DNA of 64,000 nucleotides from Myxococcota bacterium (GTDB taxonomy: Bacteria; Myxococcota_A; UBA796; CAJQPC01): assembly GCA_036229005.1 (NCBI GenBank), contig JAZAMN010000059.1:96001-160000 (forward strand). Reading direction: 5' to 3'. This document shows, piece after piece, positions 1 through 12,686 of the stretch. Numbering within the stretch: position 1 is the stretch's first letter; every line of letters begins with the position of its first letter. A program made the position numbers and the translations under genes. The notes under the pieces are model-generated. The model did no database searches. It saw nothing but the letters and a program-made list of their open reading frames with translations, and was not told where the DNA came from.

Positions 1-1899
1 CGCCTGCTGACAGCGACCGTCGTTCCCACCAAGTTCGAGCCCTTCGCCGACCACGACGGCCTGGCAGCCGCCGCAGATGTCCTGGTGCTCACAGGCGGCG
101 CAGCCCAGGTGTCCGCGGGCGCGCAGCGCGGCGGCTGTGGGGTGGCGCCGGGCGCGCTCGACGAAGCCGCGGACGCTGTCCAGCTCCACCCGCCCCAGCG
201 GGGCGCGGAAGGGGTGACAGGGGCTCAAGCTGCGGTCGGCCTGCACGCAGATCCGCGCGCCGCCGGCCTCACACTGCCAGAGGCTCTCCCGGGGCAGGCC
301 CAGACCCTCCAGCAGCGGGTTGATCACGGGGTAGTCAGCCACCACCGTGCTCAGTCCGCGCTTCTCCAGCGCGGCGACCTGCTCGGCGCAGCGCAGCAGA
401 TCCGCGGTGCTCAGGCCCCGTCCAGCGGCGGGCGTCATGCCCGGCTTGGTGAACAGCGGCCACAGGGTCAGCGGCCGCCACTGGCCCATGGACTCAGCCA
501 GGTACTGGCCCCAGGCGGCCACGCCGTAGTCCAGCAGCTCGCCGGTCAGGATGGTCGCCGGGGTGGCCAGCACGCCGTGCTCAGGCGCGATCGCCAGGGC
601 GTGCAGCGACTTGGCGGTCTGCGTGCGACCGCGCACGCGCTCGTGGACCCCCGGGGGCCCATCGATGCTCACCATCAGGTGGACCTTTGCGCGCAGCGCC
701 CCCAGCCTGGCCATCTCCGCGTGGTCCAGCAGCCCGCCGTTGGTGTTGATCAGCACCTGCGCGATGCCCAGCGCGTCCGCGCGCTCCAGGACCTCCCAGA
801 TGTGCGGGTAGAAGAAGGGCTCGCCGCCGGTCAGGTGTAGCACGGTGCGGTGTCCGACGGCCTCCTCCAGGAGCGCGAACACCAGCTCCAGAGGCAGCTC
901 GTCCAGATCGCTCAGGTCGGGCTCCTGCGCGAACACAAAGCAGTCCGGGCAGCGCAGGTTGCAGCGCCGGGTGAGCTCGATGTCCAGGACCAGGCGCTCC
1001 CCACCAAAGGCCGCCCGCGCGCCCAGCCGCAGCTTGCGACGCCCCAGGGCCTTGCGGCGCGCCTGGATGTGCGTCTGCAGCAGAGGCCCCAGCTCGAACG
1101 CAGCCGCCCGCACCTCGCAGGCACCCAGAGCGCTGTCGATGGCGTGCAAGTGGGTTCGAAGCGGTCCGGTCTTCCATGCCCGGCGCTCCGCAGCCCCCAG
1201 CTCCTCGACCCCATGACGACTCGGGTCCAGGCCCAGGATGGCCAGGTACGACGAGCGCTGTCCTTCAGCCAGATCCCGCGCCCCACCCAGCAGGTCGTTG
1301 GTGAGCTGCAGGGGCACGCCCAGCGCCTCCACCAGCTCAAACAGCGGCTCCACAAGCTCCGGCCGGCCGGCCTCCCGCGCCAGGGACACCAGCGGCAGCG
1401 CCATGGGCAGGTACTTGGCGCCCTGCAGCGCGGTGGCCTCTTCGGTCCAGGGCGCAGCGCTCGTGCGCAGGGTCAGGTCCCGGAGGGCGGCGTCCACAAA
1501 GGCCCCCATCCCCCGCGTCCAGTCCTGGGGCTCCAGCGACATCCACCCCAGCGCCGTCCCGGTCAGGAGCTGCTGGAGGTAGGCCCCGCGCGGCTCCGCG
1601 CCCTCGTCCACCAGGTCGTCCTGGATGCGCACCGCCAGATACAGGGCGAGCATCGCCTGCTGCGCGCGCTGAACGGACGCCTCGGGGAGTTCCAGCCCCT
1701 GCCCCAGCCAGGCCAGCAGCACAAAGGCCGGGGAGCCCTCCGGCCCGACAAACAGCCCCTCCAGGCCGCCCATGGGCTCCAGGCGCGCCCTCAGCGCATC
1801 GAGCTGCTCCATCAACAGACGCTGCGGGAGGGGGGGGAGGCTGCGCAGCGCGGCCTCAAATCGGGCCACACCGCCCTGCAGACCGTGGCTCTCGGACAT
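1..1899 (-). CDS. Fusion protein: N-terminal isoprenoid synthase-fold (ComQ/polyprenyl synthase-like) domain + radical SAM/SPASM domain; 3' end runs off the window
   Basis: Hand translation: ATG at 1899 overlaps the TGA of the upstream protease (TGATG) and the frame stays open to position 1 (633 codons). Motifs: YLAVRIQDDLVDE (DDxxD, 1620-1606), LQLTNDLLG (~1299), CNLRCPDC (CxxxCxxC, 963-940), TGGEP, NTNG, VSIDG, and SPASM cysteines CEAGGARICVQADRSLSPC...CAACEHQDICGGC...C. Absent from the ORF track because it has no stop in the window. Confidence 0.9.
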   Translation of the reverse strand, partial: MSESHGLQGGVARFEAALRSLPPLPQRLLMEQLDALRARLEPMGGLEGLFVGPEGSPAFVLLAWLGQGLELPEASVQRAQQAMLALYLAVRIQDDLVDEGAEPRGAYLQQLLTGTALGWMSLEPQDWTRGMGAFVDAALRDLTLRTSAAPWTEEATALQGAKYLPMALPLVSLAREAGRPELVEPLFELVEALGVPLQLTNDLLGGARDLAEGQRSSYLAILGLDPSRHGVEELGAAERRAWKTGPLRTHLHAIDSALGACEVRAAAFELGPLLQTHIQARRKALGRRKLRLGARAAFGGERLVLDIELTRRCNLRCPDCFVFAQEPDLSDLDELPLELVFALLEEAVGHRTVLHLTGGEPFFYPHIWEVLERADALGIAQVLINTNGGLLDHAEMARLGALRAKVHLMVSIDGPPGVHERVRGRTQTAKSLHALAIAPEHGVLATPATILTGELLDYGVAAWGQYLAESMGQWRPLTLWPLFTKPGMTPAAGRGLSTADLLRCAEQVAALEKRGLSTVVADYPVINPLLEGLGLPRESLWQCEAGGARICVQADRSLSPCHPFRAPLGRVELDSVRGFVERARRHPTAAALRARGHLGCAACEHQDICGGCQAVVVGEGLELGGNDGRCQQA

Positions 1900-2792
1900 C
1901 ACGCCACCGCCGGCGCAGACGAGGACACCGAGAAGCTGCGCGCGAGATCCAGCGCGCCCGAGCCCAGCCGCTCCCGCAGCCCCGCCACACCCAGCTTGGG
2001 GGAGTGCTGCAGCAACAGGGCAGCGGACCCCGCCACCAACGGCGCCGCGAAGCTGGTCCCGCGCTCCCACCCGTATCGCCGGGGACAGAGCGCCACCCGC
2101 ACGCCGCTCCCCGGGGCCAACAGCTCGGGCTTCACCGAGCGCCTGTCCTCCCAGCAGAGCAGCCCCTCCGGGCTCTCCGGGCCGGGCTCTCCCCCGCGGT
2201 CCAGGCTGCCGACGCCCAGCGCCTCGGGGTAGTTCCCCGGGCTGCCCGTCTCGCCCTGGCGTCCGCCGTTGCCGATGCTGGCGACCACCAGGATGCCGCT
2301 CCGCTCGGCTTCCTGCACAAGATCGCGGATCCACGCGTCCTGACCACGCCGCTCCAGGGTCATCAGGACCAGGTCCACCTGACCGTGCTCCAGCAACCAC
2401 TTCAGGCCAGCCCGGACGTCCTCGGGCTCAGCCCGGGAGACCCGTCGATGGCGCCCCATCCGGTAGACATCGGCGACCACCAGCGTGGCCTCGCGCGCGA
2501 GCCCCTGGTTGTCCCCCACCAGCAGGCTGGCCACGGCGGTCCCGTGGTCGGGGATCGGCGCCTGACCGGGAGAGATGCGGTGCACCTGGATGCGGCCGGA
2601 GGCGACCGCCCCACTCAGCTCGGGGTGCTCCAGGTCCACGCCACCATCCACCAGCCCGATGCGGACGCCGTCACCGCGTAGCCCGAGCGACCACGCGACC
2701 TGTGCACCGATGGCGTGCAGGTGCCAGGCAGGGTCCAGCGCTTGTACGGGCGTTGCCCGCGGCGCACGGGCAGCCTGAATGCTCGATGACAT
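1899..2792 (-). CDS. S8 (subtilisin-family) serine peptidase, catalytic domain only
   Basis: Triad motifs LVDGG, DHGTAVASL, GTSFAAP and oxyanion SIGN. Likely start is ATG 2792 (MSSSIQ); the ORF track extends to 2885. No signal peptide or pro-domain visible. Confidence 0.9.
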   Translation of the reverse strand: MSSSIQAARAPRATPVQALDPAWHLHAIGAQVAWSLGLRGDGVRIGLVDGGVDLEHPELSGAVASGRIQVHRISPGQAPIPDHGTAVASLLVGDNQGLAREATLVVADVYRMGRHRRVSRAEPEDVRAGLKWLLEHGQVDLVLMTLERRGQDAWIRDLVQEAERSGILVVASIGNGGRQGETGSPGNYPEALGVGSLDRGGEPGPESPEGLLCWEDRRSVKPELLAPGSGVRVALCPRRYGWERGTSFAAPLVAGSAALLLQHSPKLGVAGLRERLGSGALDLARSFSVSSSAPAVA

Positions 2793-2942: not shown

Positions 2943-3761
2943 TCATTCCTCCCCCGAGACCTGCCTCGCGACCCACCCGTGGACCGTTTCTGGAGCAAGT
3001 GCAAGCAGATAGAGCAGCAGCATCGACGCCGAGAAGGTGGCGACTGGAAGACTTACATAGATCCCCGCGTGCAAGATCACCCCAAATCCAAGGATCCATT
3101 TGCGGGCAGATGGGAGCCAGATGCCTAGGGCAATGGCGTACTCCAGCAGAATGACCGCTACGCTCAAAGCGACCATCAACCAATGGAATCCGGGCCACGC
3201 CGGGTAGTCCGAGCCCTGGTACAGGACCATGAAATACTGCTCCATCCGCTCCCCCGAGGCGTGCCCCCACTCGGTCTTGGACCAAGCTCCAAAGAGGTAG
3301 ATCGCGCTGAGCTGCACCTTGATCAAGTGGCGTCCCCAGTCCAGTCCCCGCTCCCGGGGAGCGTCGCCGCGCCGCAGCGCCAAGGCCCGATCCAGCGAGA
3401 AGCTCCCTCCGCAGGGGGTCAGCGCGAGCAGCACGGGCAGCGTGAACAGCAGGTAGGTGTGGTGGTGGGTGTAGGGCTCCACCCCCATCTGGTGGCCCAG
3501 GCCGTAGTACAGAAAGAGCCCCAGCGCGCCCGTGATCGCGGTGCTCAGGCGGGAGAAGAGCCCCAGGAACATGGCGGCCGTGGCCGCATACCAGAGCAGC
3601 GAGAGGCCGATGCGCCAGGGCTGGATGTGCTGGTAGAGGACAAAGTCGCTGCCCAGCCGGGACCAGAGCAGCAGTGGCCACCCGATACGGACCAGCGAGA
3701 CCGAGCGCGTCGAGGCCTCCTTGGAGAAGAAGGCCACGAGCCGGGCTCTCAGGGCGTGCAC
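2943..3761 (-). CDS. HTTM-domain (vitamin K-dependent carboxylase-like / SdpB-like) membrane protein
   Basis: Multiple TM segments; motifs HHTYLL, FSLD, QLSAIYLFGAWSK, GVILHAGI, FS typical of HTTM proteins. Confidence 0.8.
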   Translation of the reverse strand: MHALRARLVAFFSKEASTRSVSLVRIGWPLLLWSRLGSDFVLYQHIQPWRIGLSLLWYAATAAMFLGLFSRLSTAITGALGLFLYYGLGHQMGVEPYTHHHTYLLFTLPVLLALTPCGGSFSLDRALALRRGDAPRERGLDWGRHLIKVQLSAIYLFGAWSKTEWGHASGERMEQYFMVLYQGSDYPAWPGFHWLMVALSVAVILLEYAIALGIWLPSARKWILGFGVILHAGIYVSLPVATFSASMLLLYLLALAPETVHGWVARQVSGEE

Positions 3762-4144
3762 AGGTTCTCCTCGGGGTCACCCTGGGGCTTCCACCCGCGA
3801 ATCCCGCCGCAGCGGCAGTCCATGGTGAGCTCCTGAACCCCGAGCGCGCGACAGATCTCCCTCCCCTGCCGCCTGGCCTGGTCCACGTCCCGCAGCATGC
3901 GCACCTTCCGGGGCGCCTCCCAGCGGTGCTCGTAGCCCAGGGTCTCCAGCCGCTGCACCGGCGTCCGCTGAGGGCCCGCCAGATAGCGCACGTCACAGAT
4001 GTCCGTGCCGTAGCCGATGAACATCAGCCAGCGCTTCACGTAGGGCACGCGCAGGCCGAGCACCTGGGTGGCGAAGGGCCCCCCCAGCATCCACAAGGTC
4101 AGGGAGGCGAAGAGCCCCGCTCGAAGCCAGATCTTCCACCGCAT
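3749..4144 (-). CDS. Small membrane-anchored partner of the HTTM protein (SdpA/DUF5819-like)
   Basis: N-terminal TM, W-x-M-F motif, several Cys; overlaps the HTTM gene by 13 nt. Confidence 0.55.
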   Translation of the reverse strand: MRWKIWLRAGLFASLTLWMLGGPFATQVLGLRVPYVKRWLMFIGYGTDICDVRYLAGPQRTPVQRLETLGYEHRWEAPRKVRMLRDVDQARRQGREICRALGVQELTMDCRCGGIRGWKPQGDPEENLCTP

Positions 4145-10390: not shown

Positions 10391-11776
10391 GTGTCTTCTA
10401 CGAGCACACCACTTGACCGCTTGCTGCACCCCATCAAGCGCTTCGCATCGCTGGACATCTCCGGCGGCATCCTGCTGATCGCCTGCACCGTCGCGGCGCT
10501 GGTCTGGGCCAACAGCCCCTGGCACGACAGCTACCACCACCTCTGGCACACCCCGGTGGGCTTCGCCCTGGGCAGCTTCCAGGTGGAGATGAGCCTGCAC
10601 CACTGGATCAACGACGGGCTGATGGCCCTGTTCTTCCTGGTCGTGGGGCTGGAGATCAAGCGCGAGCTGCTGGTCGGCGAGCTCTCGTCCTTCAAGGCGG
10701 CGGCGCTGCCGGTGGCCGCAGCGGTCGGCGGTATGGCCGTCCCCGCCGCGATCTACGTCGCGTTCAACTACGGCACCGAGAGCGCCGGCGGCTGGGGCAT
10801 CCCCACCGCCACCGACATCGCCTTCGCCCTGGGCATCCTCTCCCTGCTGGGCAAGCGCGTGCCGGTGAGCCTCAAGCTCTTCCTCACCGCGCTGGCCGTG
10901 GTCGATGACCTGGGCGCCGTGCTCGTGATCGCCTTCTTCTACACCGCCGAGGTCAAGCTCTGGGCCCTGGGCGCCGCCGGCGGCGTGTTCGGCGCCATGC
11001 TGGTCCTCAACCGCATGGGCCTGCGCAACGTGGGCGTCTACGGCCTGCTCGGCCTGGGCCTGTGGGGCTTCCTGCTGGCGTCCGGTGTGCACGCCACCCT
11101 CGCGGGCGTGATGACCGCCATCGCCATCCCCAGCACCCGGCACCTGGTCGACACCGACCACCTGCCCATGCAGGGCCACCTGACCCTGCGCGAGCTGATT
11201 CAGGGCGAGCACGACCACGCCCACGTGGGCCACGCGCTGCACGCAACCGAGAGCCCGATGCACCGGGTGGAGCACGCGCTCCTGCCCTTCATCGACTTCC
11301 TGATCATGCCAGTGTTCGCCCTGGCGAACGCCGGCCTGACGCTGCACGGGTCCCCCACCGAGGCGCTGGCCTCCAACGTGGGCATGGGCGTGCTGCTCGG
11401 CCTCTTCGTCGGCAAGCAGCTCGGCGTGTTCGGCGCCTCCTACCTGGCGGTGAAGTCCGGGCTGGCCAAGCTCCCAGGCAACCTGCGCTGGGGACAGATC
11501 TACGGCGCCGCGCTGCTCGCGGGCATCGGCTTCACCATGAGCCTGTTCGTGACCGGCCTGGCCTTCGCCGACCCGGCCATGGTGGACAACGCCAAGCTGG
11601 GCATCCTGGGCGGCTCCCTGATCTCCGCGGTCGCGGGCGCTGGGCTCCTGATCTGGCAGGCCCGCGCGCACAAGGTCAGCGAAGACACCCTGCCCCAGGT
11701 CGCGGTCGAAGCGCCCCAGGGCTCTCTCGCGGCCAACAGCCCCATGGTCGAGGCCGAGGACCAGGAGGCAGCCTGA
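10391..11776 (+). CDS. nhaA: Na+/H+ antiporter NhaA
   Basis: WINDGLMALFF, GLEIKRE, ATDIAFALG, LAVVDDLG, GIGFTMSLF. Confidence 0.97.
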   Translation: MSSTSTPLDRLLHPIKRFASLDISGGILLIACTVAALVWANSPWHDSYHHLWHTPVGFALGSFQVEMSLHHWINDGLMALFFLVVGLEIKRELLVGELSSFKAAALPVAAAVGGMAVPAAIYVAFNYGTESAGGWGIPTATDIAFALGILSLLGKRVPVSLKLFLTALAVVDDLGAVLVIAFFYTAEVKLWALGAAGGVFGAMLVLNRMGLRNVGVYGLLGLGLWGFLLASGVHATLAGVMTAIAIPSTRHLVDTDHLPMQGHLTLRELIQGEHDHAHVGHALHATESPMHRVEHALLPFIDFLIMPVFALANAGLTLHGSPTEALASNVGMGVLLGLFVGKQLGVFGASYLAVKSGLAKLPGNLRWGQIYGAALLAGIGFTMSLFVTGLAFADPAMVDNAKLGILGGSLISAVAGAGLLIWQARAHKVSEDTLPQVAVEAPQGSLAANSPMVEAEDQEAA

Positions 11777-11782
11777 TCGGAA

Positions 11783-11809
11783 GGCGGCCCTCTACCGAAG
11801 GGGGCCGTC
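11783..11809. terminator. GC-rich hairpin between convergent nhaA and MCP-like genes
   Basis: GGCGGCCCTCT / AGGGGGCCGTC stem with G-U pairs; no U tract. Confidence 0.35.
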
Positions 11810-11813
11810 GCGC

Positions 11814-12686
11814 TCAGAAGAGGAGGACGTCTCCCGCCTCGGGGGACTCCTCCTCTTCCTCGTTCAGGACGGTCCCGTCGGCGTCGATCCCCGTCAGCGC
11901 CGCCAGGAGTCCCGCGGGTCCATCCGCGAAGACGGCCTGGACGCCGAGCATCTCCAGCTCGCTCAGCCGCTGCTCGAGCCCATCGATCATCGACAGGTGC
12001 TCCCGGGCGGCGGCGCCATCGGCCTTGAGCGCGCCCACGCGGCCCTGGGTCTCCCGCAGCGCCTCGTCGACGCTCCGGGTCATGCGCGTGGTGTGCTCAC
12101 CGAACTCGGACTCGATTCGCTCGACCTCCGCGGCCAGCGCCTGGGTCTCGGCCATGAGCTGCTTGGAGCTGGCCTCGAGCGCCGGGAGCTGCCGGCGCAG
12201 GTCCGTGACGCGCCCCGCCAGCTCATTCGACGTGGTCGCGACGTCAGCGGACAGGTCCTGCATGTGCCGGGCGACGCTGCCGACGGTGGCGCCCTGGCTG
12301 CCAAGCTGGGAGGCGCTCACGGCGGTGTTCACCGCCAGCATGTTGGCCTCGTGCGCGAGCTCCTCCATGTCGTTCCGGACCTCCTCGATCCGGGCGCAGC
12401 CCTGCGACAGGGAGTCCACCAGAGCGCCCTGCTCCTGCACCAACTCCACCAGCTCCTGGTTGAACACCTGCAGCGTGCGGCTCTGCTCGTCCAGGGCGCG
12501 TCGCAAGGCGGCGCGACCGCCCCCATCTTCGACCGCGGCTTCGAGCTGCTCGGCAGCCGTGGTGGCCCGGTGCTCCACCTCGGAGACCTCGTGGATCAGG
12601 GCCGCGATGGCGATCTGCGCGTCCGTGCGCGCCTTCTTGCAGCGGGAGCCGAGCTCCAGTCCATAGCGGGCCAGGTGGGCAGACAT
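11814..12686 (-). CDS. Soluble methyl-accepting chemotaxis-like coiled-coil protein
   Basis: ELAHEANMLAVNTAVSASQLGSQGATVGSVARHMQDLS is a divergent MCP signalling hairpin; no TM segment. Confidence 0.75.
   Translation of the reverse strand: MSAHLARYGLELGSRCKKARTDAQIAIAALIHEVSEVEHRATTAAEQLEAAVEDGGGRAALRRALDEQSRTLQVFNQELVELVQEQGALVDSLSQGCARIEEVRNDMEELAHEANMLAVNTAVSASQLGSQGATVGSVARHMQDLSADVATTSNELAGRVTDLRRQLPALEASSKQLMAETQALAAEVERIESEFGEHTTRMTRSVDEALRETQGRVGALKADGAAAREHLSMIDGLEQRLSELEMLGVQAVFADGPAGLLAALTGIDADGTVLNEEEEESPEAGDVLLF

Follow-up and report, generated by a model that had tools for sequence, protein, structure and literature searches.

Peptide prenylation systems close to the locus described here share parts of one layout. 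In ComQXPA a prenyltransferase, a small protein, a membrane kinase and a response protein are encoded on the same strand (PMC4008528), while in PalP-PalX-PalQ of Paenibacillus alvei a trans-IDS-like prenyltransferase (one that resembles a trans-isoprenyl diphosphate synthase) shares one cluster with a histidine kinase and a precursor of the nitrile hydratase leader peptide (NHLP) clan, modified at its C-terminal residue (PMC10853753). The ChrPC and NctPC maturases contain a cyclase domain, MstE-like in NctPC, and ChrPC a trans-IDS-like P domain (PMC13290415). In daptides an invariant C-terminal hydroxy residue beside a variable core marks the modification site (PMC10036551). Here we compare with them a locus at one end of a 64,000 nucleotide stretch (the window) of an uncultured marine Myxococcota bacterium (GenBank assembly GCA_036229005.1, contig JAZAMN010000059.1, positions 96,001 to 160,000; G000:C59:96001-160000), in which a prenyltransferase-like half and a radical S-adenosylmethionine (SAM)/SPASM half form one protein, encoded next to a subtilisin-type (S8) protease. 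From computed folds and motifs, the order and co-occurrence of the genes and the last residue of a small partner protein, we think it rather probable that the locus produces and perceives a peptide signal that carries a prenyl group and is modified at its C-terminal residue, not at Trp.

By analogy, the locus is best read as working like palQXP or comQXPA, with a ChrPC-type cyclase option. Transferase, peptide, kinase and regulator lie on one strand as in ComQXPA, with a convergent cyclase gene between kinase and regulator; a fused radical SAM half, a Nif11-like leader, the cyclase and a protease are added, and the kinase is of HisKA type with a GAF domain. ComX is prenylated at an internal Trp, whereas a Trp near the C-terminus occurs here in one of 18 small proteins. 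PalX ends in Trp, in contrast to Ser, Thr or Cys in all 18 (PMC10853753). The locus is therefore filed neither as ComQ nor as PalQ. As described in PMC10853753, the pal cluster includes neither a radical SAM enzyme nor a cyclase or S8 protease. The cyclase of ChrPC and NctPC is fused and their acceptor is Trp (PMC13290415), whereas the present locus encodes its cyclase by a convergent gene of its own and has a radical SAM enzyme as fusion partner. Daptide biosynthesis uses an alcohol dehydrogenase-type oxidative decarboxylase specific for Thr, and involves no prenylation, nor a radical SAM enzyme in that step (PMC10036551).

All scores shown for the fusion locus against the Qhp, anSME and MftC families are far below their cutoffs. 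The QhpC/QhpD/QhpE set comprises a SPASM enzyme, a small-protein substrate and a cytoplasmic S8 protease that lacks a pro-domain; anSME oxidizes Ser or Cys at the beta position, and MftC performs a C-terminal oxidative decarboxylation. None of these is known to work together with a prenyltransferase or with a sensor kinase. Searches of the open-access literature turned up no account of either the fusion or the system; the genome-mining tables of Hubrich 2024, which lie outside that scope, might list such clusters.

The fusion protein and its two halves

The locus, L001, corresponds to G000:C59:81001-99200, such that a window position equals the L001 position minus 15000. The features at the window edge are:

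Window 1000..1899, minus strand: N-terminal half of the fusion gene (amino acids 1-300), predicted trans-IDS-fold prenyltransferase
Window 1..999 plus 47 nt past the window edge, minus strand: C-terminal half of the fusion gene (amino acids 301-648), radical SAM and SPASM (8 Cys)
Window 1629-1603, minus strand: RIQDDLVDE, residues 91-99, N-terminal half
Window 1311-1270, minus strand: LQLTNDLLGGARDL, residues 197-210, N-terminal half
Window 963-940, minus strand: CNLRCPDC, residues 313-320, C-terminal half
Residues 358-361, minus strand: GGEP, C-terminal half
Residues C543, C551, C561, C600, C603, C609, C612 and C630, minus strand: SPASM cysteines, from the sequence
Window 1899..2792, minus strand: stand-alone cytoplasmic S8 (subtilisin) protease, 297 amino acids, Pfam S8, D49/H83/S247

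An earlier sequence-only reading had followed an open frame from ATG 1899 to the window edge. This is indeed a single minus-strand frame of 648 amino acids with its stop 47 nt past that edge, its ATG overlaps the TGA of the S8 gene by 1 nt (TGATG) as had been noted, and all motifs then named were located in the fusion sequence. The fusion, which that reading took as genuine, is real and conserved: the whole 7.2-kb stretch lies, free of frameshifts, on one contig in each of two marine metagenome runs from separate studies (X2, X3), the sole indel listed between assemblies being a 3-nt deletion in the kinase gene, and 11 further fused proteins of 651-679 amino acids are known (P0005-P0015). An assembly artefact was rejected on these two grounds, the independent assemblies and the other fused proteins.

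An AlphaFold2 model of the fusion (mean predicted local distance difference test score 74, from an 8-row alignment) is all-helical across residues 1-298. When residues 1-286 were compared with 48,161 PDB representatives, the top match was a trans-IDS (Z 21.0, root mean square deviation 3.3, 264 aligned), with further matches to Ord1 (Z 17.0) and MoeN5 (Z 16.4). The ESM Atlas is concordant, with a template modelling score of 0.75 to a geranylgeranyl diphosphate (GGPP) synthase cluster; Foldseek with the full fusion model listed only radical SAM matches. The isoprenoid synthase (trans-IDS) fold proposed earlier is thus supported for modelled residues 1-286. The profile search suggested at that time gave a divided answer, since Pfam Radical_SAM matched residues 307-444 (E 1e-15) and the N-terminal half had nothing above cutoff in Pfam or NCBIfam (SQS_PSY at E 0.01 only).

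The N-terminal half carries a first Asp-rich motif (FARM; D94-D95-x-x-D98), K162, Q198 and a degenerate second Asp-rich motif (pseudo-SARM; N201-D202...D209). All 17 clade members retain the DDxxD, K162, Q198, N201-D202 and D209; position +4 of the pseudo-SARM is Gly in 13 of them, and the Arg pair after the FARM, a mark of chain-elongating synthases, is absent in all 17. The Gln is also present in ordinary trans-IDS enzymes. An intact FARM with a pseudo-SARM preceded by Gln (QxxND), found here throughout the clade, has been described for ComQ, PalQ, ChrPC and Ord1 (PMC13290415; PMC12510300); the K162/Q198 motif set mirrors the K178/Q216/D219 spacing of Ord1 (PMC12510300), and the Gln has been linked to indole recognition (PMC13290415). 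In distant relatives the second motif is reduced to xD. By its modelled fold and its motifs, the N-terminal half fits a candidate prenyltransferase.

The C-terminal half has the CxxxCxxC (313-320) and GGEP motifs and at least seven C-terminal Cys, as radical SAM-SPASM maturases do. The full SPASM set that had been read amounts to eight Cys, invariant in 11 of 11 alignment rows, with its spacing corrected to CX2CX5CX2C; the textbook spacing is CX2CX5CX3C. Against named radical SAM families (ScmE, NirJ, MftC, PapB and others; 25 shown of 62) the best score was 62.7 bits with cutoffs of 170-850, and no RiPP recognition element domain was seen in this half (RiPP: a peptide made by ribosomes and modified after translation). 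Among solved structures its closest relatives are for the most part enzymes that mature peptides or proteins (PqqE, SkfB, SuiB, anSME).

A profile of the N-terminal half gave 15 matches in 13 of the 182 genomes of the class, all at E<1e-65 with the next match at 1e-21. A profile for the kinase's sensor region and another for the radical SAM family match those same 13 genomes, although G001, G081 and G119 had been included in neither alignment. The range outside the class was judged from a 401-genome sample of the phylum, two pattern scans and two word-limited searches; the phylum sample gave six matches, all within the class. The 17 loci compared below are the class-genome matches plus two metagenome contigs, with the partial matches L024, L029, L031 and L032 left out. 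On the question asked earlier, whether homologues keep the fusion, ten are cleanly fused, five are split, one has an unreadable junction (a G/C-run stretch in G160, counted neither as fused nor as split) and one has no adjacent radical SAM gene. Split pairs overlap by TGATG, ATGA or GTGA, and since the split forms make up one clade (support 97/93), a single fission or fusion event suffices.

Small partner proteins, protease and neighbouring genes

Downstream of the fusion gene, and outside the window, the order is P0003, kinase, convergent cyclase and receiver protein:

L001 14684-14932, minus strand: P0003, an 82 amino acid Nif11-like open reading frame (ORF) directly downstream of the fusion, candidate precursor
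L001 12346-14733 (start uncertain), minus strand: multi-helix membrane histidine kinase
L001 ~11391-12410, plus strand: convergent class II terpene cyclase-like gene, 339 amino acids
L001 9920-~11290, minus strand: receiver-PAS-HATPase protein

A precursor had been suspected beyond position 1 of the window, and P0003 is a candidate for it. Its ribosome-binding site is GAGAGGAG, and within the genus it is under purifying selection (ratio of non-synonymous to synonymous substitution 0.07-0.27; 69 codons, 3 pairs). A small ORF is found at all 17 loci (18 proteins, as L028 has two); those of G081 and G148 lie on a separate contig just upstream of the kinase, the G081 one being cut at its start. 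The RiPP-type context that had been proposed for the fusion is supported. The small proteins are built on one Nif11-like helical unit, in some repeated two or three times; L027:5329-5940 encodes one with three tandem units, and L028:3049-4059 holds the two small proteins followed by a downstream methyltransferase. The ESM Atlas returned only unnamed or DUF3800 leads for P0003. A predicted complex of fusion and P0003 was not used as evidence: it scored 0.68 and partner swaps 0.00 and 0.02, but an enzyme swap still 0.49.

The last residue is Ser, Thr or Cys in 18 of 18 small proteins (8 Ser, 9 Thr, 1 Cys; 14 clusters at 40% identity), against a background of 8.3% among 3489 ORFs of G000. The pattern had already been written down when two of these proteins were discovered, and both conform. 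Position -2 is hydrophobic or Pro, and positions -3 to -7 are variable. Trp occurs within the last 16 residues of a single small protein and is wholly absent from two, so that Trp as acceptor, the expectation of the sequence-only reading, and the label 'Trp prenyltransferase' are unsupported. Since the catalytic motifs are kept, the partners are Trp-poor or Trp-free and the last residue is the only fixed one, peptide lipidation is predicted to use a new acceptor chemistry here, and the radical SAM half to catalyse a new reaction.

The S8 protease matches Pfam S8 (E 2e-28) across residues 40-276 and has, like other subtilases, an intact D49/H83/S247 triad and the oxyanion N175; a QhpE-type model scores E 4e-15, below cutoff. 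Its catalytic domain starts near residue 40, which leaves no space for a signal peptide and pro-domain, in agreement with what had been read. It is likely the leader peptidase of this locus. Its role as the defining partner of the fusion is not supported: the small stand-alone form lies directly upstream in three genomes only, all of the genus, and some S8 protein is near 8 of the 17 loci (small form 3, S8-VWA inside the operon 3, divergent or convergent S8 2), for which reason we regard it as accessory. Because the S8 profile missed the S8-VWA proteins, absences were judged by profile together with reading of the ORF lists. These proteins, of about 1400 amino acids, lie between small ORF and kinase (L063:10475-14677, L068:10770-14882, L071:3358-7578). 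One locus has a clostripain (C11) in place of S8 and distant relatives have a PqqD-M50 peptidase; the protease is an interchangeable accessory.

Two Cys in the first loop of the kinase are invariant in 9 of 9 aligned homologues. The cyclase profile, built from the gene and eight homologues, matches squalene-hopene cyclase (E 2e-17) and MstE (E 2e-9), which assigns the gene to monodomain class II cyclase-like proteins with a DxDD-type motif and QW-repeat barrel. The motif reads DLDS in the own genus and DADD, DADV or DADS in homologues; because the third Asp is not kept, activity in the genus is uncertain. The cyclase occurs at 8 of 17 loci, all fused or probably fused. The components that best define the system, beyond those seen from the window, are the small protein with its C-terminal Ser, Thr or Cys, the dedicated kinase and the class II cyclase.

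Of the flanking genes, an HTTM/SdpB-like membrane gene and its 131 amino acid partner upstream of the S8 gene (window 2943-4144, minus strand) were rejected as parts, other genes being present there in G001 and G003. Downstream of the receiver gene (L001:4220-9877, minus strand) lie TldD and PmbA as a pair, an ATP-grasp protein resembling DcsG (score below cutoff) and a 637 amino acid protein. TldD/PmbA were seen downstream of the locus only in the three genus members, TldD following it in G001 and G003 as well as here, and were not counted as parts.

Distant relatives of the prenyltransferase

Distant relatives of the prenyltransferase adjoin Os1348/Frankia NHLP-clan precursors, 3 of 3 scanned passing the NF038399 cutoff, and often class II cyclases and membrane adenylate cyclases. 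Nine of their partner precursors end in Gly (3), Ser (3) or Cys (3), and eight are without Trp. The Gly-ending ones come, in small numbers, from G005 and G121, where the fusion-type radical SAM family was not found, and the precursor of the lone distant locus with that family ends in Cys. This suggests, from terminal residues, that the transferase may favour a small residue at the C-terminus, and the radical SAM half one that bears a beta-heteroatom.

We also observed what appears as a sister system (L009, L014, L017, L074-L077, L079, L081; genomes G005, G013, G125, G140, G126, G138, G121, G109), consisting of a trans-IDS-like prenyltransferase that stands alone, an Os1348/Frankia-type NHLP precursor that is free of Trp and ends in AAS, AAG, AAC or similar, often a class II cyclase of ~520-590 amino acids, a membrane adenylate cyclase, and a divergent peptidase (PqqD-M50). 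The fusion-type radical SAM family was not found in these genomes, and some loci have a methyltransferase or 2-oxoglutarate-oxygenase-like gene (by eye). P0016 (667 amino acids), a distant homologue of the N-terminal half, has the same prenyltransferase family fused to a squalene-hopene-cyclase-type domain, as in ChrPC. A divergent copy, L078 (G161:C2), encodes a prenyltransferase, a kinase with a PDZ-like loop (by eye), a 148 amino acid protein ending in GGGGVC, a 472 amino acid protein and, as a gene of its own, a radical SAM enzyme of the fusion's family.

Proposed route and competing explanations

In the proposed route the fusion enzyme would bind the helical Nif11-like leader of the small protein. 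Its IDS-fold half, as modelled, would ionize geranyl, farnesyl or geranylgeranyl diphosphate at the intact DDxxD and pass the prenyl chain to the C-terminal residue, presumably to the side-chain O or S or to the carboxylate. Before or after this, the radical SAM half would abstract the beta-hydrogen of the same Ser, Thr or Cys and oxidize it, with CO2 probably being lost. At loci that have it, the class II cyclase, assigned by family, might fold the isoprenoid chain into rings, and the leader would be cut off by a protease, at this locus the S8 whose gene is translationally coupled. The product would then leave the cell and bind the kinase, which may signal via the adjacent receiver protein.

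Several points weigh against this reading. All characterized trans-IDS-like prenyltransferases target Trp according to PMC13290415, where a non-Trp acceptor is without precedent. P0003 matches no Nif11 or NHLP model; the leader assignment comes from one weak match of a homologue (L027, Pfam Nif11, E 4e-4, below cutoff) and from the alignment, in which a double-glycine cleavage motif is not conserved. No transporter was seen in the own locus, and for 8 of 17 loci the DNA examined showed no peptidase, part of these lying on short contigs. At G158:C62 the adjacent radical SAM gene is missing, G160:C8 has a kinase paralogue with no prenyltransferase nearby, an orphan beside a receiver protein (L085:8039-11194), and the G084 kinase (L067:11355-14015) carries one internal in-frame TAG. 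Finally, the relatives compared are not independent, and the profiles were partly built from the same loci.

The small protein and its last residue are where the competing explanations part. A small-molecule meroterpenoid or lipid pathway, in which a free acceptor is prenylated and then tailored by cyclase and radical SAM enzyme while the small protein serves as carrier, chaperone or regulator, would draw on the fold shared with Ord1 and MoeN5, of which Ord1, like XiaM, is cited as indole prenylating, and on the match of the cyclase profile to MstE. A number of the small proteins consist of Nif11-like repeats in tandem, followed by a short tail, and MstE acts on a prenylated small molecule. 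Nif11 leaders moreover resemble acyl carrier proteins in architecture (bioRxiv 10.64898/2026.10.04.756588). We nevertheless judge such a pathway improbable, as it leaves unexplained the fixed last residue (18 of 18) beside variable neighbours, the NHLP-clan identity of the distant partners and the recurring yet differing peptidases (S8, S8-VWA, C11, PqqD-M50). That the N-terminal half is instead a class I terpene cyclase, building a diterpene with the class II cyclase, is kept at very long odds because N201-D-L-L-G205-G-A-R-D209 fits the NSE/DTE spacing (NDxxGxxxD) and because Sat1646, which we take to be a class I terpene cyclase, is the best PDB sequence match of a wide profile (E 0.007); yet the class II cyclase is found at 8 of 17 loci and the small ORF at all 17, in distant relatives only xD is left of the second motif, and the best fold matches are trans-IDS. 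No class I terpene cyclase was among the 50 fold matches listed, which by itself does not speak against that family.

Two further explanations keep the peptide. A ComQ-type enzyme that prenylates W51 of P0003, a residue of the LAxxWG helix, while its radical SAM half cross-links the peptide, would account for the Gln before the pseudo-SARM in 17 of 17; of the 15 small proteins aligned, about two thirds have the helix Trp, the exact share varying with where gaps are placed. Its position is, however, taken by Ser, Arg, His, Tyr and others in some, the last 16 residues are Trp-free in 17 of 18 partners and two have no Trp anywhere, eight of nine distant partners are also Trp-free, and the Gln is present in ordinary trans-IDS enzymes too; we rate this explanation as distinctly implausible. 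The other overlaps with the preferred reading and differs in that the radical SAM half would act on the attached isoprenoid (desaturation, cyclization or tethering to the peptide), the C-terminal Ser, Thr or Cys being an O/S nucleophile only. Fusion suggests channelling of a prenylated intermediate, and the cyclase lies only beside fused or probably fused forms. But the solved relatives of the radical SAM half being mostly peptide or protein maturases speaks for a peptide target, wherever the radical SAM gene is present the small protein terminates in Ser, Thr or Cys, and the transferase apparently has no need for O or S, since distant prenyltransferases pair with Gly-ending precursors. We therefore hold this variant to be unlikely.

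The preferred reading, a prenylated and sensed peptide modified at its C-terminal residue, can be carried further only tentatively. It is conceivable, though we would sooner doubt than assert it, that the locus represents a new RiPP class and the first such peptide-pheromone system in Myxococcota, in which one polypeptide would oxidize and prenylate a C-terminal Ser, Thr or Cys, possibly with prenylation at the enol or enethiol left by oxidative decarboxylation, a separate class II cyclase would cyclize the chain, and a co-inherited kinase would read the Trp-free, terpenoid-capped peptide. The matching distribution of the specific sensor kinase points to unrecognised peptide signalling in uncultured Myxococcota.

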